Source: Escherichia phage phAPEC8. Taken from it: 64,000 bases of DNA. Under the pieces are notes generated by a model, which searched no databases, was not told the DNA's origin, and was given only the letters and a program-made list of their open reading frames with translations. This document shows positions 9,062 to 41,041 of this stretch, piece after piece. The translations under genes were made by a program, and so were the position numbers. The stretch is from sequence record NC_020079.1. One strand, written 5' to 3'. Numbering within the stretch: the first letter of the stretch is position 1; every line of letters begins with the position of its first letter.

Positions 9062-9397
9062 ATGGAATTTCAAGAAGCATGGGGACTTGCAAAGGATGCA
9101 ATAATCCCTTTAATCGGAGTCATCTGGTTCTTTTTCAAACAAAAAATGGATAAATTCGGCTCTGATCTTGAGGAAATGGAGGAGAAAAGTCGAGAGCTAG
9201 AGAAGAAGTTGGTCTTTGTTGAATCAACTTACGCAACTAAAGCCGAACTTACCCAGATGCTAAATCAAATTAACTCTACATTAATGGCAAATAACAACAC
9301 CCTTGAGCAAAAAATTGAAAAGATTATGGACCTCAAGAATGCGACTATCCAAATGATGCTAGATGACATAGTTAAACGTACACAGAATAAGGGGTAA
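9062..9397 (+). CDS. Small membrane-anchored coiled-coil protein
   Basis: 111 aa; N-terminal hydrophobic helix (IIPLIGVIWFFF) then charged coiled-coil. Confidence 0.35.
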   Translation: MEFQEAWGLAKDAIIPLIGVIWFFFKQKMDKFGSDLEEMEEKSRELEKKLVFVESTYATKAELTQMLNQINSTLMANNNTLEQKIEKIMDLKNATIQMMLDDIVKRTQNKG

Positions 9398-9400
9398 TTA

Positions 9401-12400
9401 ATGGCAACATTCCCAACATATCCAGCAACGTCTCTCGAACAGGGCGTAGACCTGGTTATTTTCTCATCTAACCAACTCCATGATGTTATTAATGGAAGTG
9501 CTACAGAGAGTATTGAAACAGAATCAGGGTTGATACCAACCCTGAGAAAAGCCCTTGTTGACAACTTTTTCTTTAAAAGTCCATTAGATTGGGCGCAAGG
9601 CACAAACGAAACAGTTTTTAACCAACTTCGTTATTTCCAGAACGGGGTGTTGAGTGGTTATTACTATGCGCCTAACGCTACACTGGTAAACCCAATTCCT
9701 ATGCAAGGGACTCCAGTAGGAGATAACAACTGGGTATTGTGGGGACTGAAGACAGAACAACTAGCAACAGAAGTCACCCCTTGGGTATATTCTGGTGCAA
9801 CTGGTTATGAAACAGTAATCAGTCCTCCCTACATCTTTGATAGTGCTATTGTTACGATCAATGGTGTTATTCAGGTTCTGGGAGAAGCTTTCCGCATAGA
9901 AGATAGTAAAATCATCTTATCTGAACCTTTGGGACACGATCCTGCAACAGGACTGCCAAACAAACTTTTTGCCTATATTGGTAAAATCGTAGCTTCCGCA
10001 GATACAGATCCTAACTTAGAAAACCGTCTTGTCAGTTTAGAAACAAAAACTGAAGAACTGACAGAAAGCATGGATAAAGTACCTTTACAAACTATTGCTC
10101 GTAAATACGGTTTGTTGGATGATGAAGTAGCTTACGCAACAGCGGGTCAATCGTTAACAGGGATTAAAGCTCTGTATGATCCAGTAGCACAATCTTCCTA
10201 CACATTGCCTCCTAACATCACAGGGACTTTAACATCCTTGTCTGTTTCTGGAGTAATGACTTATTCTGGCGGATCTGTAGATCTTTCTGCATTGGCTGTT
10301 GAACGTGGACAGTTTGTTCATTTGCCTACAAGCTTTGGTAATAACGTAACTCTGACAGCTAAAAATCAGACGATTGGACGTGGTGCTGGTCGTTATCGTT
10401 GGGCTGGGAGTTTACCAAAAAGTATTTTGGCCTCAGATACATTGGAGACAAGCGGTGGATTAGGTCCAAATGCATGGGTTCTGACCAATACAGAAGGACT
10501 GTTAACCCCTCGTGGTGGAACATACAACGATTTATTCGATGTTGTCTACTTATCAGAATTTGCTAACAACACAACAACATATACCACACCAGAAGCAGCT
10601 TTCCAAGCGGCACTGTTAGCAGCAAAAGCTTCGAAAAGCAAGATTCTCGATGCTTACGGTTGCGATATGACTTTCACGACAAGCTCTTTTGATATTCAAG
10701 GTATCACTTTGCGTGGGGGTGTGTTCCGTGGTCAACGCGACTATCGTGTGCAAAATGCTACAGTAGAAGGCACAACTTTCCGTAACTCTCGTGTTATGTA
10801 TTGGGGTGGTGCTGTGCGCATGTTCGATTGTTTGTGGGACGGTGCTCCTCGCGCAGGTCAAGTTGGTAGCTTGGTATTCCAAGGCAACCCAATATCAGGT
10901 ACTTTTGAAATTGATAACTGTACTTTTAAAAACGGGTTGTATGGCATCCTTCAACAAGGAACAGGGGAACCAGTAACACGTGGTGTCTTCCGTAACCTTA
11001 CCTTCATGGACATGCAAGGTGATGCAATAGAACTGAACGTCATCAATAAACATTATGACGATGGTTGTGTGATTGAGAATATTTACCTGTCTAATATCGA
11101 TGGGACTAACGCTCCTATTCCTCTGTCCAACTGGGGTATCGGTATCGGTGTAGCTGGTAAAGGACCATATGGTTACGGAATCCCTGATGATCAATATTGC
11201 AAGAATATTACAATTCGTAACGTTTTTGCAAAACGTTGTCGTCAGATTGTCCACGTAGAAGTTGGTCGTAATATCTCTATCGAAAACATTCATGGCGATC
11301 CAGACCAGACCGTATCTGTTGGGACAGGTTTGGCAACTGGCGCAGTTGTAATGTATGGAAGTAAAGATTTTACGATTGACGGTGTTTACGGAGAGCCTAA
11401 AACAGACGGTAGCACACTTGCAAGTAATATCCGTATGATTTATTTGGAGTGGGGAACTAACGCAGTTCTGGACGAAGAGGGTAATCCGGTAGTTCCGGCA
11501 CAGGGTAGACCTTCAAACCCATGCTTTAACTATTCTGTTCGTAATATTCACACCAAAACTGGGCGTGTTTTTGCAGGAGTTTCCGCTGGGCCAGGTTATG
11601 AAAACAGAGTTAGCTTTGAAAATATTCGTTGCGCTGCATTGCAGTTATTCGGTATAGCTTCTTGGCTTTCAATGTCTAACATCACCTGTAATATCTTCGA
11701 TTGTGTTGGTCAACCTGAATCTGGTCCAGGGACATTTTATGATGGATTCTTCCGTAGAGAAAAATCTGTTCTTGAAATGGTTAACGTGAACTGTTACCCA
11801 GATGGCAAGACGATGGTTACTGGTCGTCCACAGTGGAGCCGTTGCCGTTACTCGGATATTCATCGTGTCAATTGTAATGTTGAAGCTAATATGTATACCA
11901 ATATCGCAGGTGGTATTGGAGCTATTGTAGGGACAACGGGCAAAGTTTATTACTTAGAGCCTAATCCTAGTCGAAACATTGATGGAATGCATTTCCCAAC
12001 AGGGAAAGAGTTTGACAAAGGTGATATGATAGTCAAGGCGGATAATACGTTCTTCCTTGTAACAACAAGTGGGGCATATATTCCAGATATCCCAGCTTTC
12101 GGTATTCGAGCTACACAGGCAGGAGATACCTTCCTGACACAGAACTTGACTCCTAACGGGACAGCAACAAATGCTTCTTGGTTGTATCATTACCCTCTGT
12201 CAGCAGGGACACGTATCCGTATTCCTGGCGCTGGTGTAGGTGGAGCAGATTTGGACACAGTTATTACTCGTGCACCTTATCAAGATAATGATACGTGGAC
12301 TAACCCAGTTAAAATAGACATTGCAGATCCAATTGTAACGCCTACAAGTGCTGGAGTTAGAATTAAAACCATACCTAATGATTCCAGTAATGTTTCTGTA

Positions 12401-32604: not shown

Positions 32605-33094
32605 TTATAGGAAGTGTTACAAGAGGATCATCTTCTTCAATTTCCATCTTGTCATCTTCTGTTTCAATGAGAGTATTATGCACTTTGTGATAAGGGTTGT
32701 CAACACGTTTAAACTTATTCTTTTCTGTGCTGAAAAAACAATCTGGATCTTCTTCACCATCACCCCAACCTTGGTTAGGATCTCCGTCAGATTGTTCTGT
32801 AGGGATTTCACCTGTAAAGTACTCTTCCAGCACCATAGCGATACCGTCCCTTGGATTTGAGGAATGCATCAAATCACAAACCTTACTCCAATCCATAGCC
32901 CATTCAAATCGTTCACGAACACCATTTTCATCCTCCTTTCCAGAGAAAACACAACCATAACTATCATAGTTGCCATACATCTCTTCAATAACAACACCGT
33001 CCTTCAAAAGAAAGAGATAACAAGGTGATCCGTCGAAAGAAGTAGAAAGGGCAGCTTTGCCCGATTCTTTGCACAAAAAGCTAAAACAACCCAT
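32531..33094 (-). CDS. Hypothetical acidic protein
   Basis: 187 aa ORF. Confidence 0.35.
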   Translation of the reverse strand: MGCFSFLCKESGKAALSTSFDGSPCYLFLLKDGVVIEEMYGNYDSYGCVFSGKEDENGVRERFEWAMDWSKVCDLMHSSNPRDGIAMVLEEYFTGEIPTEQSDGDPNQGWGDGEEDPDCFFSTEKNKFKRVDNPYHKVHNTLIETEDDKMEIEEDDPLVTLPISELQKITKEAYDLGFKIGRGGMRV

Positions 33095-33492
33095 TACAAA
33101 CCCTCCTTCAGATTATCAAGAGCTACAGTGGTTTCACAAAATTCTCCATAAGCTTTATGATGTTCCAGAAAAGCTTCGGGTCCACCCCAGTCATTATCTT
33201 GTGTATTCCAGCCATCAATAAAAGCATCTTCAATGATTGTGATCAGTTCCTGTCGAGTCAACGTAATGGTATCAGGTTTCTGCGTAGTTTCCACACGGAA
33301 CCCTGGTTCTTCATAAAAACCTTTAGTTACAATGGATTCTAACTCTTCTGCATCACAGAGGAAGTAGCCACAAAGATAACACCCACCGTCATCATCTTTC
33401 ATTACTTCATAAACTTCACCACTTGCTAACTTGATGAAAAGAGTAGGGTCTGTTACTGTAAGTTTTAAAAGAATACCTGTTGGATTATACAT
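33094..33492 (-). CDS. Hypothetical protein
   Basis: 132 aa ORF; start-overlaps the upstream stop. Confidence 0.35.
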   Translation of the reverse strand: MYNPTGILLKLTVTDPTLFIKLASGEVYEVMKDDDGGCYLCGYFLCDAEELESIVTKGFYEEPGFRVETTQKPDTITLTRQELITIIEDAFIDGWNTQDNDWGGPEAFLEHHKAYGEFCETTVALDNLKEGL

Positions 33493-33658
33493 CTTCTTCC
33501 TCCTCTAAGATATGGAACCCGTAATTACAATAATCCTGAAAGGTTTCGTGTGCAAGATCTTCTATATCTTCTTGAGACATATCATCTTCAATTTCGATAT
33601 CTACAACCTCATTGCATCCACACCAAGCCGTTTCAATATTCACTCGTAATATTTTCAT
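33485..33658 (-). CDS. Small acidic protein (57 aa, not in ORF track)
   Basis: ATG overlaps upstream TAA (TAATG) and its stop overlaps the next ATG; MKILRVNIETAWCGCNEVVDIEIEDD... Confidence 0.3.
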   Translation of the reverse strand: MKILRVNIETAWCGCNEVVDIEIEDDMSQEDIEDLAHETFQDYCNYGFHILEEEEDV

Positions 33659-33858
33659 TACTCCTCCTCCTCCTCATTGAAGTCAATATCTGCAAGGAGT
33701 TCGAATTTACGGAAGTTACGACAACCTTCATAAATATAACAATCACGACAAACTGCTAGAACACTTGGGGGATATATGCCTCCCATCGGTGCGAATCGTT
33801 TTTCGTCATCATAACGGACACCAATGTCTTCATCAATTATATAGATACGGATTCTCAT
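33658..33858 (-). CDS. Small Cys-containing protein
   Basis: 66 aa; CRDCYIYEGC; acidic C-terminus; coupled to telA stop. Confidence 0.35.
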   Translation of the reverse strand: MRIRIYIIDEDIGVRYDDEKRFAPMGGIYPPSVLAVCRDCYIYEGCRNFRKFELLADIDFNEEEEE

Positions 33859-34967
33859 TTACCAAGCCCTCGTTTCACAGCAGCTACCATCCCGTCTTCC
33901 AGAGATTGAACTTCATTAATATAATCAACACGAGCAGCACGGGCTTCCGTATTGATGCGGTTAGTTTCTTCCAACATCTTAACCAAGTTTTCCTGATCGT
34001 GACGCAGAGTTTCAATATCCAACACTTGACGGTTAGCCAGTGCTGCTGCTTCGATCTGATTCTGTGTGGCAAGATCGCTACCCAGTTTAATTGCCAGGTT
34101 AAATTCATCAAGAACGTTATTCTGCGTCTCTGCTGCTTTCATTTGACGTAAGCTCTCGATATACATTGAGAAGTTAGCAGAGTAAGCAGGAATAACATTA
34201 TTTACTATGTTACGCGCAGATCGCATTAAGCTTGCAGAAACTTTTTGCATACCTTGTACACGCGGTCCCATTTGGACACACAGTAGGCGCAATGCTTTTA
34301 AATCTGCAATACGAATCTCCAGAAGATCCAAAGTATCTCGGATCACTTGTCGCTGTTCTACTGCATCTTCTGGAAGAGCAGCCAAAGCTTGTTCTTCTTT
34401 TTCATAGGTTGCTGTTAGAAGCTGCATATCTCGGTTCAAACTTGCAGCATATTGTCCAATAGCTTGATGTAGCTTTTCAAGATATACCAAGGAATCTTCT
34501 TCTTTGCGAATATCCATTTGAAGGTTCTTTACCAACTCTTCAATACGGTTATTAACATTATCAAACTCCCCAAACAGATCTTCTTTCATACCCATAACTT
34601 TTTTAATGAGTTTAGTAATACCCTTGCTTTGTTTAATAGAGTTTGGATCAAGTTGTTTTGCCTGTTTAATCAAAGCTGTGAGTCGTTCACTCATCTGATC
34701 GCCTTGATTACTACGTTGATGTTTTAATACCTCGGCATTCAAGGAACGCAAGGTTGTTCCTGCCTCTGCCCCAATCTCTTCAATCTCTTGTCGGGTCATA
34801 GAAGGCAAAACTGGAACTTCTTGCGGTGCCGCTGGTGCATAAACAGGACTGGCATCTAACACGCTTGGAGCGAATACAGATTTACTTGCATCGGTTGTTG
34901 CAGCAAATACGCTCATTTCAGGCTTCTTCTGACCACCAGTAGCTGCTTTTAAAAATGGACTTGTCAT
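33855..34967 (-). CDS. telA: TelA/KlaA-like toxic-anion-resistance family protein
   Basis: 370 aa, largely helical/coiled-coil, size and composition of the TelA family; sits in a Ter gene neighbourhood. Confidence 0.6.
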   Translation of the reverse strand: MTSPFLKAATGGQKKPEMSVFAATTDASKSVFAPSVLDASPVYAPAAPQEVPVLPSMTRQEIEEIGAEAGTTLRSLNAEVLKHQRSNQGDQMSERLTALIKQAKQLDPNSIKQSKGITKLIKKVMGMKEDLFGEFDNVNNRIEELVKNLQMDIRKEEDSLVYLEKLHQAIGQYAASLNRDMQLLTATYEKEEQALAALPEDAVEQRQVIRDTLDLLEIRIADLKALRLLCVQMGPRVQGMQKVSASLMRSARNIVNNVIPAYSANFSMYIESLRQMKAAETQNNVLDEFNLAIKLGSDLATQNQIEAAALANRQVLDIETLRHDQENLVKMLEETNRINTEARAARVDYINEVQSLEDGMVAAVKRGLGK

Positions 34968-35554
34968 TCTTCATTCTCCTCTTCTGCATCTCTTATATAT
35001 GGTGAAACACCGTACTCTTTAGCTACTTTAACCCAATCGTCCCATTTATACAACCATAATTTTCCTTCGGTCCCTTCTTTATCTGATTTCAACCACATAT
35101 TAGGTTGCTTACCTGGGTACATGCGATTAGGTTTACGATTATAACCTCTAACACATCTTGTCGCAAACCCATCTACCAGAACAAGAACATATTTATATTC
35201 GTGGTTCAACGGCTCTTTGGAAGTGGCTTTAGGATTAGCCCCTAATTCTGCTGCCAGTTTTTGCCAATGAGCACCGTGCCTACTAAACTTACCCATACAA
35301 CCATCAATAGCATGAGCAATTTCGTGCTTCATTGTGTCCACGATCATATCTCTTGTGGAGTTCTTATGCAAGTGCCAATTTACAACAACAATTTTATCTC
35401 GGTAGTTGCACCAACCGAAAGAGTTATTCACTTTGTTTCTAACACAAGCTTTATATCCTGCTTCACGTAACATGTTGTAGTAAACAGGAAAATCTTCTTT
35501 TATTTCCTGCATCACTTCCCACCACAAGAGTTGCAAGTCTCTCTCGGTATGCAT
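34964..35554 (-). CDS. SprT-like zinc metallopeptidase
   Basis: 196 aa; HEIAHAI (HExxH) followed by GKFSRHGAHW. Confidence 0.5.
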   Translation of the reverse strand: MHTERDLQLLWWEVMQEIKEDFPVYYNMLREAGYKACVRNKVNNSFGWCNYRDKIVVVNWHLHKNSTRDMIVDTMKHEIAHAIDGCMGKFSRHGAHWQKLAAELGANPKATSKEPLNHEYKYVLVLVDGFATRCVRGYNRKPNRMYPGKQPNMWLKSDKEGTEGKLWLYKWDDWVKVAKEYGVSPYIRDAEEENEE

Positions 35555-35557
35555 AAC

Positions 35558-36151
35558 TTACACCTTAAAAGCGAAATGCGTGGTCGTGGCTTCAAAATCA
35601 GGGCCAGATAAACTTGCACTGAAATCTGAAATATTTGTAATTAAAAAGCTTTTATGCATACCTAACACAGCCACGCTTTCAATATCTTCTACTAACATTT
35701 CAATCATGTTAGAAACATGGCTGAACGTATAGTTTTGTTTTTTGATGGTGTAGAAAGAAAGACTCCCACCTGCTGTATAAGATACCTCTTCAAAATCTTT
35801 AATCGTATATTGTGTACCATCAGTAAAGAAAATGGTAGCTTTATTAGTAGCACGTTTCTTGTTTTTTGGTCCTTTTTTACGTTTACTGCGAGTAGGCAAA
35901 CCGTTTGGGAACACCGTAGCTACAAATTCTTCAGGGGAAACCTCCTTACCGAAATCATAATCGTAAGAAACAGCGTCTATACACTCGTCGTCTTCATTTT
36001 TAAAATAATGAAAATAGGGCCAATTTGAGAGATTATCGAGCATCTTATGCGCATCCACAACAGAGAACGTATCCCTCAAAGCACGTGTGATTTGCAAAGC
36101 ATTAGGCAAACTTTTAACACCTGTAATGGAAGTACGAATAGAAATTGTCAT
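35558..36151 (-). CDS. Hypothetical protein
   Basis: 197 aa ORF. Confidence 0.35.
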   Translation of the reverse strand: MTISIRTSITGVKSLPNALQITRALRDTFSVVDAHKMLDNLSNWPYFHYFKNEDDECIDAVSYDYDFGKEVSPEEFVATVFPNGLPTRSKRKKGPKNKKRATNKATIFFTDGTQYTIKDFEEVSYTAGGSLSFYTIKKQNYTFSHVSNMIEMLVEDIESVAVLGMHKSFLITNISDFSASLSGPDFEATTTHFAFKV

Positions 36152-36165
36152 TGTTTTTCTCCTTA

Positions 36166-36603
36166 TTAACGTCGCTTGCTACGAGATGAACTCTTTTTAC
36201 TTAAAGGGCTATTGTAAGATTTACGAGTTGTATAGCTACTATTTGTTTTAAAAGTTTGTCTCGGCTTTTCATAAGTTTTTATCTCTTGTTTAGGCTTACC
36301 ATAAAAATTAGTTTTCGGTTTAGGTGTATTATAATGCTTATTAATAATCGTTCTGTTATCGTTATAATCCCCACTGCTACGATTACTACCACCACTCATC
36401 ATATGCCCTAACAACATACCTGTAGCAAACTCACCAACACCGCTACTACTAGAACCGCCACCATTGTTGATAATAGTTGTATCTCCGTCAGATCCTTGTT
36501 GAGCGTATTGTTGAGGAGGTTGTTGGTATTGTGCAGGATTTGTTTCATCCTCGCAAGCTGTTAAAAAGATACAACCAATTAAAATCAGGGCTAGTTTTTT
36601 CAT
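36166..36603 (-). CDS. Lipoprotein with Gly/Ser-rich region
   Basis: Start at ATG behind GAGGAAAG; signal MKKLALILIGCIFLTAC (lipobox LTAC); Q/G/S-rich linker. Confidence 0.5.
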   Translation of the reverse strand: MKKLALILIGCIFLTACEDETNPAQYQQPPQQYAQQGSDGDTTIINNGGGSSSSGVGEFATGMLLGHMMSGGSNRSSGDYNDNRTIINKHYNTPKPKTNFYGKPKQEIKTYEKPRQTFKTNSSYTTRKSYNSPLSKKSSSRSKRR

Positions 36604-36790
36604 ATTTGCTTTCCTCATTTTGACTATTAATACATCTGTGTTTGAAATCTCCAGAGAAGCAATAAAGTTGCTCTCCATCTCGGTATAAACTCACTTTACT
36701 GCCGTTGATTACGCTTGTCAATACAAAAATTACAACAAACAACCCTATTGCAAAACAAATATTTTCAAACACAACCAACAAGTATTTCAT
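36545..36790 (-). CDS. Small membrane protein
   Basis: 81 aa; hydrophobic N-terminus LLVVFENICFAIGLFVVIFVL. Confidence 0.3.
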   Translation of the reverse strand: MKYLLVVFENICFAIGLFVVIFVLTSVINGSKVSLYRDGEQLYCFSGDFKHRCINSQNEESKYEKTSPDFNWLYLFNSLRG

Positions 36791-37137
36791 TTTAAAAATA
36801 CCTCATCATCAGTCTCATTATCCCAGAAGAACAAATCCCAACCATTCGGATCATTCCATTTGGCTGCTGGAGAAGTCCATATTTGTTCGATATCAATATT
36901 CAAAACTTCACCGTTTCGTTTTGAAACAGCTTTAGTTAATTCCCAACGAGATACAGGCTCTACTTCCCCTGAACCACTCCCACAACAAGCTACCACGTTA
37001 GGAGGCAAATTAATTGGATCTTTGGTCACGATCATAACGCTTACCCCAGGGTAAACTTTTGAAAGATAATCTAAAACGTAATCCACATCACCAGATAAAT
37101 CCCAAACAAGTTCTTGAATTTCATCAAAATTATTCAT
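36787..37137 (-). CDS. Hypothetical protein
   Basis: 116 aa ORF. Confidence 0.35.
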   Translation of the reverse strand: MNNFDEIQELVWDLSGDVDYVLDYLSKVYPGVSVMIVTKDPINLPPNVVACCGSGSGEVEPVSRWELTKAVSKRNGEVLNIDIEQIWTSPAAKWNDPNGWDLFFWDNETDDEVFLK

Positions 37138-37179
37138 AAGTCTCTCCTATAAAATAGCCTCCCGAAGGAGGCTCATCTA

Positions 37180-38154
37180 TTAAACAGCAGCTTCTTCTTT
37201 TTCAGGGAAGATAAAGCTTGCAATAACACCAAGAGCTAATGTGCCTAGAACAATCATCAGACTTACGTTAGGGGAAATATCATGCGGGAGGAATGACCAC
37301 TTGGCATGAAGTGTTTCACCGAACGGGTGATACATAAGTTTAGCACCGACAAATACCAGAACCACAGCAACAGCTTTCTCTAAGTGAACCAGATATTTCA
37401 CAGCCACACTTAACACAAAGAAAAGTGCACGTAAACCAAGAACAGCCATCAGCATTGCAGAATAAACTAGCAGAGGTTCTTGTGTCACACCGATCACAGC
37501 CGGAACTGAATCAAAAGAGAAGACAATATCTGTAAGCTCAATAACAAACACACAAAGAAGAGCAGGAGTTGCATATTTAATACCATTCTTAATGGTGATG
37601 AACTTTTCACCATCTAGTGCATTGTGCACAGGCAGAACTTTACCTACTAAACGAACAGCCCAATGCTTAGAGTAATCAATATCCTCTTCTTCGTCACCAC
37701 CTTTGATGATAGCCACGGCAGACCAAGCTACAATCAAACCGAACAACACTTGGACCGACCAATGAAGGTTAAACAAAGCGGTCCCTGCTGCAACAAAAAT
37801 ACCTCGGAAGACAATGGCTCCTGCAATCCCCCAAAGTAAAATCTTATGTTGGAGATGTGTGCTCTTAATTCCAAAGCTTGCAAAAATTGCCATGAACACC
37901 ATCAAGTTATCTACAGAAAGACTCTTTTCCAACACATAGCCACTTAGGAAAAGCGCGGCAAACTCTTTACCATGTTCTACCCAAATGAATGCGTAATATC
38001 CTAAAGCTAAAGCAATCCAAAAAACAGACCAAAGCAAAGCAGATTTAATTCCAATTTCTTTATTCTCTTTATGACCAAAGAAATCGATACCAATAGACAA
38101 TGCTAAAATACCAACCAAAACAACTACATCAATAATGGGGAAACCAAGTTGCAT
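37180..38154 (-). CDS. terC: TerC-family integral membrane protein
   Basis: 324 aa; multiple TM helices; EKSLSVDN motif characteristic of TerC. Confidence 0.75.
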   Translation of the reverse strand: MQLGFPIIDVVVLVGILALSIGIDFFGHKENKEIGIKSALLWSVFWIALALGYYAFIWVEHGKEFAALFLSGYVLEKSLSVDNLMVFMAIFASFGIKSTHLQHKILLWGIAGAIVFRGIFVAAGTALFNLHWSVQVLFGLIVAWSAVAIIKGGDEEEDIDYSKHWAVRLVGKVLPVHNALDGEKFITIKNGIKYATPALLCVFVIELTDIVFSFDSVPAVIGVTQEPLLVYSAMLMAVLGLRALFFVLSVAVKYLVHLEKAVAVVLVFVGAKLMYHPFGETLHAKWSFLPHDISPNVSLMIVLGTLALGVIASFIFPEKEEAAV

Positions 38155-38173
38155 TATTTTCTCCTTTCTCTTT

Positions 38174-38232
38174 GCGGGGAACCACTCCCCGCCTCATGTG
38201 ATACATCTTACTCTATTCTAAAACTTTGTCAA
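38174..38232 (-). promoter_or_regulatory. Early-type promoter plus 5' hairpin cassette driving terC
   Basis: - strand reads TTGACA-N16-TAAGAT-gtatcacat-GGCGGGGA-gtggt-TCCCCGC-aaagagaaaGGAGaaaataATG; same architecture as the 60-64 kb cassettes. Confidence 0.55.
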
Positions 38233-38235
38233 CAC

Positions 38236-38457
38236 TTATTTTGAAGAACTTGAGGAAAAGATCCCACGTAGTACAGCCATGATAAATGCCACACACACCA
38301 CAGTCCAGAAGGTGACAGGAACAGTGATATCTGTGTGACCCATCATTTCAACAACGTAGTTATAAGCCAGCAGCAGAAGCCATGCTGGAATCATACTAAT
38401 CAGAAAAGCAATAACAAACACAATAATCACTGCAAGAATACCTGCTAAAACGCCCAT
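38236..38457 (-). CDS. Small two-helix membrane protein
   Basis: 73 aa, strongly hydrophobic. Confidence 0.4.
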   Translation of the reverse strand: MGVLAGILAVIIVFVIAFLISMIPAWLLLLAYNYVVEMMGHTDITVPVTFWTVVCVAFIMAVLRGIFSSSSSK

Positions 38458-38470
38458 AATATTTCTCCTC

Positions 38471-38944
38471 TTAAAGTTTATAAATAGTCACATCGTGACC
38501 TGTTTTTACTAAAGTTTCTTCAATCATCACTTGGATGATAGCCCAATTACCTCCAGCATGTCCAGCGCCAATCATAGGTAAGCCGATCTTACATTTTTGG
38601 TCACGGAGAAGCAAATCGTTAGCCATAGCTATTAGTGCATCGTAAAGTGCATCATAGTCCAACTGACGACCTTTAGCATTGTATCCGTAACGGTATTGCC
38701 CGTATAGATTATATACCAAAGGGTCTGATTGTTCGTCTGGCACTCCTAAACTAAAACAACCTAGTTTACTTTGATCACCAGCCATTGTGTCTAAGTCTGC
38801 TGCATATGCGTAAGGAAATGCTCGTTTGATTTGTGGGGCAATACCTGCCCCCATATTACACATACAGTTGCAACAATGAGCAATAACAGTTACTTCACCT
38901 GCTTTAGCGGCATCAATAAGATTACCTGTTTTCATTTTAAGCAT
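38471..38944 (-). CDS. Macro domain protein (ADP-ribose binding/processing)
   Basis: Start at ATG behind AAGGAG; VIAHCCNCMCNMGAGIAPQIKRAFP and IGLPMIGAGHAGGNW parallel the two macro-domain glycine-rich loops. Confidence 0.55.
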   Translation of the reverse strand: MLKMKTGNLIDAAKAGEVTVIAHCCNCMCNMGAGIAPQIKRAFPYAYAADLDTMAGDQSKLGCFSLGVPDEQSDPLVYNLYGQYRYGYNAKGRQLDYDALYDALIAMANDLLLRDQKCKIGLPMIGAGHAGGNWAIIQVMIEETLVKTGHDVTIYKL

Positions 38945-38957
38945 TTTTAGCTCCTTA

Positions 38958-39785
38958 TTACAGAATGTGTTGTTTTGTGTAACGATCCAAGAATTCAAAG
39001 TTTTCAGCATACTTTGAAATTCGGTTGTAACCTTCTCCCAAGCATCCAAAGAAAAGTTGCTCTACATAGTAATGTGGCAATTGGCTAAGAATGATTTTGA
39101 AGTCTTCATGATTTTGGCCCATAAGATACTTAATAGGACGAACAAGACACTGTGCATCACGTTCTTCATTAATCATTTTAACAAACGCTTCCGGTGTATT
39201 AATGTAGTTAAAATTCAGTTTAGCTTCGGTATCTGCTTGATTACCTTCATATTTTGCAAAATACAGGAAGTAAACATCATTTTTAACTTGATTTTCATTA
39301 AGGATCTCAATCAGTTTGTCTTCATGCGTTCCAGTGATATTTACATCATCAATGAATACAAGCTTCTTATCACCCCAGAATTCTTTGTTACAGTAGAATG
39401 TATCCCCATCAATAAGTTTCTTACGACTAGCTTTATCCAAGAAACCATAATCGTTGATATAGCTAACTTTACGATGAATAATGTCCAGTTCTGCTGAACG
39501 ACCTTGATCATATTGTGATTGCAACATATTAAAGTAATTAATAAAATGATCTGTCATCATTGTTGCAGCATTATGCACATGGTTGTAAGGAGAAGGAATG
39601 ATAACAAATTGTTCCCCAATATGTTTCATTGCCACTTGAGCAAAAAACTGAAGTGCCAATTCTTTACCCATACGACGCGCGGCTTGGTTACTACCAAATT
39701 TCAATTTTGAATAATCTTGGATATCAAAAGTAGCAGTTTCCAGGTCATCAAATTTATTTGCAAAAATTTGAGTTTGATTACGCAT
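38958..39785 (-). CDS. Phosphoribosyltransferase (type I PRTase fold) domain protein
   Basis: 275 aa; KLVFIDDVNITGTHEDK matches the PRPP-binding motif (hydrophobic-DD-x-x-TG-T). Confidence 0.55.
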   Translation of the reverse strand: MRNQTQIFANKFDDLETATFDIQDYSKLKFGSNQAARRMGKELALQFFAQVAMKHIGEQFVIIPSPYNHVHNAATMMTDHFINYFNMLQSQYDQGRSAELDIIHRKVSYINDYGFLDKASRKKLIDGDTFYCNKEFWGDKKLVFIDDVNITGTHEDKLIEILNENQVKNDVYFLYFAKYEGNQADTEAKLNFNYINTPEAFVKMINEERDAQCLVRPIKYLMGQNHEDFKIILSQLPHYYVEQLFFGCLGEGYNRISKYAENFEFLDRYTKQHIL

Positions 39786-40435: not shown

Positions 40436-41041
40436 TTAAGCCCACCATGCGTCTAAGTTAAGATTACTGTCCACTACCACTTGTTCTATGTGGTAGCCTT
40501 TTATCTGTATCCCACTGTTCAAGAGCATATCATACGCTTCATTGAAACGCAACTTATCTTCTGCGGAATATAAGCGAGCATTATAAAATCGGTAATCAAT
40601 TTCTTCAGCATTAGAAGAAATACGGAAGAAGTTTGTTTCTACTTCGGGATCACTTGCTGAAGTCTTAATGTGAACTTCTCCGTAATTTTCTTTACTTAGA
40701 TCCATGAAAAGAACACAGGCAACATGTTTAAACATTCGTTCCAGTTTGTAACGAACAACATTGAAACCTGCATTCTCAAGTTTTTCTACACACTGCAACA
40801 TTAAAGTAGTGTCGAGATCGCTTTGATACTTTGTTAACATACGATCACGTTGAGACTTTGTATCCCGATGTAAATCAATTGTTGTGCATTTGGCACCAAT
40901 AATCTTAGCTGCTTTCATCAACTCTTCAGAACTAACGTTAGATAAAGTAAGATGAAAGTGGGCTTTCCACACTTTTTTAGCAGGGACACCAAAAGATTTA
41001 TCCCCACTATTCGGCATGTTGACTACTACACTATGTTGCAT
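40436..41041 (-). CDS. Hypothetical protein co-operonic with HAD/PRTase/macro genes
   Basis: 201 aa; no confident motif. Confidence 0.35.
   Translation of the reverse strand: MQHSVVVNMPNSGDKSFGVPAKKVWKAHFHLTLSNVSSEELMKAAKIIGAKCTTIDLHRDTKSQRDRMLTKYQSDLDTTLMLQCVEKLENAGFNVVRYKLERMFKHVACVLFMDLSKENYGEVHIKTSASDPEVETNFFRISSNAEEIDYRFYNARLYSAEDKLRFNEAYDMLLNSGIQIKGYHIEQVVVDSNLNLDAWWA

Follow-up and report, generated by a model that had tools for sequence, protein, structure and literature searches.

A SprT-like protease gene and a predicted lipoprotein gene in a variable slot of the Ter block of Escherichia phage phAPEC8

In Escherichia phage phAPEC8, genes for a SprT-like metallopeptidase and a lipoprotein lie between telA and terC, inside a block of Ter genes, which raises the question of whether they are working parts of the Ter system or cargo lodged within it. 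We addressed this question in a stretch of 64,000 nucleotides (nt) of the phage genome (sequence record NC_020079.1), hereafter the window, to which all positions refer. An initial annotation had described the two genes as embedded in the same minus-strand run as the Ter genes and, together with TerC and a downstream SleB-like hydrolase, as pointing to an envelope- or DNA-damage-directed function of the wider block. The genes and their position are borne out by our analysis, but the function is not. The slot between terC and telA is a variable one, occupied by three unrelated accessory genes (SprT-like, orphan and lipoprotein), and is mosaic, fast-evolving and interchangeable cargo, not a conserved part of the Ter block; with respect to the SprT-like gene, the sister lineages, the distribution of the family, its viral loci and other Ter-bearing phages argue that it is cargo and not a Ter component.

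The product of the SprT-like gene, 196 amino acids (aa) long, matches Pfam family PF10263 over residues 31-107 with 36.7 bits (cut-off 25.6; E=4.2e-9) and phrog_6445 from end to end (E=2.8e-63), so that its HExxH motif is far beyond chance. The motif reads HEIAH (residues 77-81), and the catalytic residues are H77, E78, H81 and H93. Word-seeded homologue searches gave close relatives only, and an exhaustive HMMER search (E<=1e-3) returned 998 cluster representatives of SprT-like proteins, mostly of 150-200 aa. In an alignment of 66 representatives, all share H77, E78, H93, W97 and G105, and at least 90% have H81; the third histidine ligand sits in a GHGxxW motif (H93, W97). A profile of this alignment matches human Spartan (6mdx; E=2.5e-7) across HExxH (HEMIH in Spartan), GHG and the first strands of the zinc (Zn)-binding subdomain of Spartan. 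Both HExxH and the third histidine align with the catalytic residues of the SprT family and of human Spartan, an agreement whose absence would have refuted the initial assignment to SprT-like HExxH metallopeptidases. The AlphaFold model (predicted local distance difference test score, pLDDT, 93.5) has a fold that matches a solved member of the family.

The protein consists of an N-terminal protease subdomain (residues ~1-115) followed by a C-terminal beta-rich domain (~122-181) without Zn-ribbon cysteines. Residues 116-196 hold one Cys, which is not enough for a Zn site like that of Spartan or E. coli SprT, and the NCBIfam equivalog model for E. coli SprT yields 19.9 bits against a cut-off of 175. 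Neither a signal peptide nor a transmembrane or hydrophobic segment was found by sequence analysis of the protein, so nothing points to access to envelope substrates. Thus, as judged from sequence comparison, the protein is a genuine SprT/Spartan-family zinc metalloprotease with a predicted intact HExxH...H site, its membership being solid at the level of PF10263, and it is predicted to be a soluble, cytoplasmic, two-domain, Zn-ribbon-less variant of a kind common in phages.

In the window, the slot and its borders are organized as follows, where ORF stands for open reading frame:

37180-38154, minus strand: terC, encoding a TerC-family integral membrane protein (PF03741, E=3e-40)
37156-37173, minus strand: terminator-like hairpin (consensus scan and folding)
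36787-37137, minus strand: acidic 116-aa ORF (phrog_27498)
36545-36790, minus strand: predicted small bitopic membrane protein of 81 aa (phrog_17591 and hydropathy)
36166-36603, minus strand: predicted lipoprotein precursor of 145 aa (sequence, ribosome-binding site and lipobox; phrog_21570/32479)
35558-36151, minus strand: orphan 197-aa ORF, between the lipoprotein and SprT-like genes
34964-35554, minus strand: SprT-like ORF of 196 aa (PF10263 and phrog_6445)
33855-34967, minus strand: telA (PF05816, E=3e-33; phrog_5890, 'tellurite resistance')

The position between telA and terC is accordingly as initially described, and the genes named in that description are real, although the 197-aa ORF and the overlapping 81-aa ORF had been passed over. 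The stop codon of the SprT-like gene overlaps the telA start codon as ATGA. Around the slot, the Ter block comprises TerD, vWA-TerF, TelA, TerC, PRTase_3, HAD and macro.

Comparison of three Stephanstirmvirinae lineages showed that the slot diverges far faster than its surroundings: the products of the slot genes are 34-49% identical between lineages (SprT-like, 48-49%; 81-aa protein, 40-49%; lipoprotein, 35-36%; orphan, 34-39%), as opposed to 66-88% for TerC (71-88%), TelA (74-79%), TerD (81-86%) and vWA (66-67%). The content of the slot varies as well. In phage phi92, of the sister genus Justusliebigvirus, the locus reads TerC-gp181-gp180-gp179-TelA, whose middle three products, gp181, gp180 and gp179, are orthologous to the 81-aa protein, the lipoprotein and the orphan, respectively; the SprT-like gene is missing and all Ter genes are kept. 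In the Klebsiella lineage (KP2025, phi1_175008), the slot holds an extra 79-aa ORF, and both there and in the metagenomic relative L011 the SprT-like gene stands directly upstream of telA, an adjacency that is found in three lineages at 48-66% identity. A 153-kb Phapecoctavirus-like genome from IMG/VR (L017), with a SprT-like protein 93% identical to that of phAPEC8, has no lipoprotein gene and keeps the 81-aa membrane protein (L017:8876-9997); its orphan is a 289-aa form that has an additional domain at the N terminus, resembling that of phi92 gp179. Phage-borne Ter systems in jumbo and related phages are described in the sections on these systems in Iyer et al. 2021 (PMC7824862), and a Ter cluster has also been noted for Klebsiella phage phiKp34. 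Both the SprT-like gene and the lipoprotein gene are absent from the Ter clusters of Caulobacter phage CcrBL9 and Pseudomonas phage phiPsa347.

We assessed the co-occurrence of SprT-like and Ter genes in phage and viral loci, bacterial genomes lying outside the survey. By tblastn, the SprT-like family was found in 362 phage records, 293 of them at <60% identity; the latter set includes T4-like phages (KVP40, RB43-like and KP27-like) along with Pseudomonas, Streptomyces and other phages, none of which is among the TelA matches. Apart from distant families, no Justusliebigvirus record is among the 362. Ter genes were detected within 10 kb in 2 of 80 IMG/VR viral loci with SprT relatives, a set found with a narrower SprT alignment. 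Both loci (L017 and L018) are Stephanstirmvirinae-like, and the remaining 78 are without Ter genes. No TelA was seen adjacent to the nearest metagenomic SprT relatives, whose contigs are so short that this carries little weight. Hence, the SprT-like gene was not found to accompany TerC, TelA or TerD in independent lineages, as a Ter component should. A protease that is missing from the phi92-like slot despite the presence of all Ter genes, and that accompanies Ter genes in 2 of 80 viral loci, does not reveal an envelope- or DNA-damage-directed function of the wider block, which corresponds to the phage-borne Ter system already described in the Ter sections of PMC7824862; nor does the SleB-like hydrolase, which is annotated as an endolysin in related phages.

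Outside the Ter context, the family often resides near replication genes. In a Pseudotevenvirus, Escherichia phage UPEC03 (L100:1552-3453), the SprT-like gene follows the genes for the large and medium subunits of topoisomerase II and precedes rIIA, whereas in T4-like environmental loci, as read from the sequence, it is located just upstream of gp59-like and gp32-like genes. The phAPEC8 gene itself belongs to a replication and nucleotide-metabolism module. Full-length relatives with 42% identity (L019 and L020) have small early genes as neighbours, among them a Lar-type gene for restriction alleviation. The adjacency to topoisomerase II is suggestive because this protease family removes topoisomerase-DNA adducts in eukaryotes. 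As a separate observation, a SleB-like hydrolase (Hydrolase_2) is encoded directly upstream of the SprT-like gene in T4-like contigs (L025:2459-3504 and L079:3-1010, also L077 and L081) and 1.5 kb from it in L040 (~9210-11371), and the SleB-like gene of the window is 5 kb from the SprT-like gene; the hydrolases of the T4-like environmental contigs carry a signal peptide. This proximity could reflect a recurrent pairing or merely a shared hyperplastic region.

The shared minus-strand run is co-directional, as initially stated, but need not be one operon. Directly after the terC stop codon, a hairpin, AGCCTCC-TTCG-GGAGGCT, followed by ATTTTAT (37156-37173; folding energy -17 kcal/mol, z=-3.7) parts terC from the downstream genes, and because this hairpin is terminator-like, location in the same strand run does not mean one operon. 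Upstream of terC, we identified a sigma70-like promoter, TTGACA-16-TAAGAT, at 38232-38205 and a second stable GC hairpin in the short 5' leader (38155-38235, minus strand). Bacterial TerC-family genes are known to carry yybP-ykoY-type riboswitches. In the region 33000-39500, no Rfam match was obtained, and a riboswitch of this type, or another RNA, upstream of terC was rejected on that basis. The hairpins on both sides of terC have been annotated as terminators by another group; in phage ASO2A, the one after the terC stop codon carries the label of a rho-independent terminator. Given the mosaic slot and the promoter and hairpins of terC's own, the shared strand is weak evidence for a shared function.

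The lipoprotein gene is likewise real. Its product starts with MKKLALILIGCIFLTAC and is preceded by a GAGGA ribosome-binding site 7 nt upstream; the signal peptide reads MKKLALILIGCIFLTA up to the cysteine, and its lipobox, LTA followed by C17, fits the pattern [LVI][ASTVI][GAS]C. C17 is invariant in 12 relatives, and the ORF is the only one in the window to pass a simple lipobox filter, which excluded Pro in the hydrophobic region. The 36166-36603 product thus has the features of a bacterial-type lipoprotein and is a predicted lipoprotein, as the initial annotation held; matches of its relatives to LPAM_1 are below threshold. The accompanying description as Gly/Ser-rich is accurate for residues 46-80 (51% G+S) but not for the mature protein (24%). 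An acidic Q/P-rich N-terminal part is followed by the core GVGxFATGMxLGHMMSGG, invariant in 12 members and too polar for a confident transmembrane helix, and by a basic tail rich in S/T/N/Y/K/R that ends in RR, so that the charge distribution is polarized. Asp at the +2 position is the classical inner-membrane retention signal in Enterobacteria. Such an Asp is found in 11 of 12 relatives; the phAPEC8 copy has Glu instead. Among candidate homologies, a likeness of the Gly/Met-rich motif to DUF1190/YgiB was rejected, since hhalign returned a probability of 16.6%, confined to the lipobox/signal-peptide region. Pfam scores of the lipoprotein family stayed below the cut-offs for DUF2076 (best 17 bits versus 38) and DUF1190 (11.5 versus 22), and the matches to DUF2076, YjbE and LysC are sub-threshold and composition-driven.

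The 3' end of the gene for the 81-aa protein overlaps the start of the lipoprotein gene by 59 nt, an arrangement that is kept in every lineage with both genes (L011, phi92 and KP2025). Because the genes overlap, the lipoprotein would be made together with the upstream membrane protein through translational coupling. Across 6 orthologues, the single transmembrane segment of the 81-aa protein contains invariant E9 and C12, and C44 and C53 outside it are invariant too; this pattern suggests that the protein has a disulfide in the periplasm and a buried charge of functional importance. The PHROGs of both proteins (phrog_17591 for the 81-aa protein and phrog_21570/32479 for the lipoprotein) are families of unknown function. 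The 197-aa orphan is restricted to this phage subfamily; it combines a conserved basic KRKKGPxxKKR linker and a C-terminal all-beta domain with an N-terminal region that varies between lineages, and structure comparison found no informative neighbour for it. In PADLOC, the protease, orphan, lipoprotein and membrane protein have no meaningful match (best SspF, E=0.007, and PglX, E=0.001); the PglX match, which pairs the orphan's C-terminal beta domain with the C-terminal region of this methyltransferase of the bacteriophage exclusion (BREX) system (E=0.0013, 15 bits), is probably noise. The 116-aa protein is acidic, with an isoelectric point (pI) of 4.05, and is confined to Phapecoctavirus-type lineages, with tblastn matches in L017, a same-sized gene in L011 and none in phi92 or the Klebsiella lineage.

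What might these genes do? By analogy with its characterized relatives, and with moderate confidence, we regard the SprT-like protein as a DNA-associated, Spartan-like protease that is accessory cargo. We favour this reading because the homology to Spartan extends into the DNA-binding subdomain, members of the family are often encoded among replication genes, and the phAPEC8 gene is located in the replication module. Like Spartan and SprT, the protease would function independently in the cytoplasm of the infected cell and would take no part in the workings of the Ter machinery: its Zn-less beta domain, related to the Zn-binding subdomain of Spartan, would attach it to DNA, and it would cleave proteins stuck or bound there, either covalent topoisomerase or other adducts or host DNA-binding proteins, which would keep phage replication unobstructed. 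The membrane protein and the lipoprotein, for their part, would be placed at the periplasmic face of the inner membrane, most likely as an accessory pair of the envelope-modifying or superinfection-exclusion type.

Several points weigh against this interpretation. The C-terminal domain, with its single Cys, is unable to form the Zn site of its relatives and has a pI of 6.8, so that DNA binding is not evident from its composition. Targeted literature keyword searches turned up no experiments on any phage SprT-like protein, and the discussion of phage SprT-like peptidases in Iyer et al. (PMC7824862) favours host-protein targets. The adjacency of the SprT-like gene to telA has been kept and the stop and start codons overlap, so a local functional link with TelA is possible, and no phage without a Ter block was found to carry the membrane protein, lipoprotein or orphan, which would fit a Ter-accessory role as well.

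The main rival, a possible but rather less probable explanation, is that the protease serves host takeover or anti-defence and is directed not at DNA-bound adducts but at particular host proteins, for example defence or stress-response factors, which it would cleave. It is the proposal made in the passages of PMC7824862 on these peptidases, but no target is known, PADLOC yields no significant match for the protease (only SspF, at E=0.007), and a second domain that resembles that of Spartan speaks for association with nucleic acids rather than for a dedicated protein-recognition module.

A working role of the protease and lipoprotein in the Ter system itself, as the initial annotation viewed them, whether by processing TelA/vWA-TerF scaffolds or by linking TerC to the periplasm, appears improbable. 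In its favour, three lineages retain the placement between terC and telA, the Ter block is accompanied throughout the subfamily by the membrane protein, lipoprotein and orphan, and the tight ATGA coupling of the SprT-like gene to telA keeps the idea alive. However, phi92-type phages have the Ter block without SprT, L017 has it without the lipoprotein, the Ter clusters of the Caulobacter and Pseudomonas phages contain neither gene, 78 of the 80 SprT-bearing viral loci are devoid of Ter genes, and terC has a promoter-like site of its own on one side and a terminator-like hairpin on the other. A more elaborate version, which we consider more doubtful still, casts the slot as a subfamily-specific envelope extension of Ter composed of a disulfide-bearing membrane protein, a metal-handling lipoprotein and a TelA-tuning protease. 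In this version, the TerC-family transporter would deliver a metal ion to be handled by the invariant D/E-x5-M-x3-HMM core of the inner-membrane lipoprotein, and proteolysis by the SprT-like protease, whose translation is coupled to that of TelA, would adjust the TelA/vWA scaffold.

Finally, it is extremely unlikely that the 81-aa protein and the overlapping lipoprotein form a two-component, Rz/Rz1-like spanin that disrupts the outer membrane at lysis, a role that we exclude for practical purposes: the overlapping layout of a membrane-protein and a lipoprotein gene and a weak match of one relative to the Rz1-like LysC model (E=0.021, below cut-off) speak for it, but Kongari et al. list other genes, gp121/00146 at 62.0-62.6 kb, as the i-/o-spanin of phAPEC8 and place the phi92 pair elsewhere too (about 56-62 kb), curated spanins have no tblastn match in the window, both PHROGs are of unknown function, Asp at +2 (inner-membrane retention) is present in 11 of 12 members of the lipoprotein family, the periplasmic part of the 81-aa protein is ~40-55 aa long with no coiled coil evident in its sequence, and one lineage is without the lipoprotein. 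In the annotation of 49 kb of phage anhysbys, no spanin was found.

Placed beside known systems, the favoured reading of a Spartan-like protease carried as cargo draws on proteins that are familiar individually. Human Spartan (SPRTN), E. coli SprT and, more distantly, yeast Wss1 belong to PF10263, and the phage protein shares with them HExxH, the third His in GHGxxW and a minimal zincin fold. As in Spartan, a beta-rich second subdomain follows the protease part and aligns with the start of the Zn-binding subdomain; in contrast to Spartan and E. coli SprT, the phage domain lacks the Cys/His Zn site. Ubiquitin-, PCNA- or p97-binding tails are also absent, and a DNA-dependent activity would be presumed by analogy. 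ArdC-type anti-restriction proteins differ in having an N-terminal ssDNA (single-stranded DNA)-binding ArdC domain, which the phage protein lacks, and its match to their metalloprotease domain is much weaker than that to Spartan. Small phage lipoproteins with a lipobox, paired with a membrane-protein gene, are known from o-spanins (Rz1), T5 Llp and phi80 Cor, the last two being superinfection-exclusion lipoproteins. The phAPEC8 lipoprotein shows no sequence similarity to any of these, most members of its family carry the inner-membrane retention residue, and the true spanins are encoded elsewhere. The SprT-like peptidases of jumbo phages and mycobacteriophages, as presented in the relevant parts of PMC7824862 and PMC12363180, belong to the same family and have a patchy, accessory distribution and a resemblance to PDB 6MDX, but the phAPEC8 copy stands out by its position inside a Ter block. 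The phage- and plasmid-borne Ter systems in the Ter sections of PMC7824862 match the flanking genes, including the Ter-associated PRTase_3 and HAD, whereas those passages name neither the SprT-like gene nor the orphan or the lipoprotein as a component, and all three are absent from the Ter clusters of other phage lineages.

As for the wider setting, the region 33800-38200 shares 99.5% identity with Escherichia phage PNJ1809-36. Used as a query, it matches 71 phage records, of which nearly all belong to Phapecoctavirus and 60 cover at least 80% of its length. Phapecoctavirus comprises the phAPEC8-like myoviruses of the Stephanstirmvirinae, which infect E. coli; the phage is virulent. Three records named 'Campylobacter phage' or 'Acinetobacter phage' (MG065650.1, MG065639.1 and OP562383.1) are 99% identical here to E. 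coli Phapecoctavirus/Justusliebigvirus, and their host labels may be unreliable. The slot genes are part of a co-directional minus-strand module of ~18-52 kb, as judged by GC skew and the ORFs read, that also encodes primase/helicase, NrdD/NrdG, a UvrD-type helicase and glycosyltransferases.

Other genes of the Ter block invite comparison with defence systems. DarG is an antitoxin, a DNA ADP-ribosyl glycohydrolase. It is the best match of the macro-domain protein (38471-39049, minus strand; NCBIfam E=5.5e-9, PADLOC DarG E=4.3e-10), which could counter DarT-type defence; the ORF as listed overlaps the PRTase gene, and a shorter, 157-aa form is annotated in other records. A 201-aa protein (40436-41041, minus strand) adjoining the HAD and PRTase genes has no Pfam match but matches two PADLOC 'AbiEi' models over nearly its full length (E=4.7e-13 and 4.4e-12). 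In Pseudomonas phage phiPsa347 (L006, 923-2713), a nicotinamide phosphoribosyltransferase gene lies ~3 kb from TelA/TerD with a macro-domain match between them, and it may connect to counter-defence related to nicotinamide adenine dinucleotide (NAD).

Much of this was already known: some GenBank entries for phages of this group name the gene product 'SprT-like family protein', the structural likeness between phage SprT-like proteins and 6MDX is in print (PMC12363180), and both phage Ter clusters and the scattering of SprT-like peptidases through large phages have been recorded. As occupants of a variable slot, and not conserved members of the Ter block, the genes make for a genuine but ordinary finding, which matters little beyond annotation. 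Nevertheless, the comparison separates the conserved genes of the Ter block from its interchangeable cargo, and, since Phapecoctaviruses are candidates for phage therapy, their unexplained envelope and protease genes merit eventual testing.

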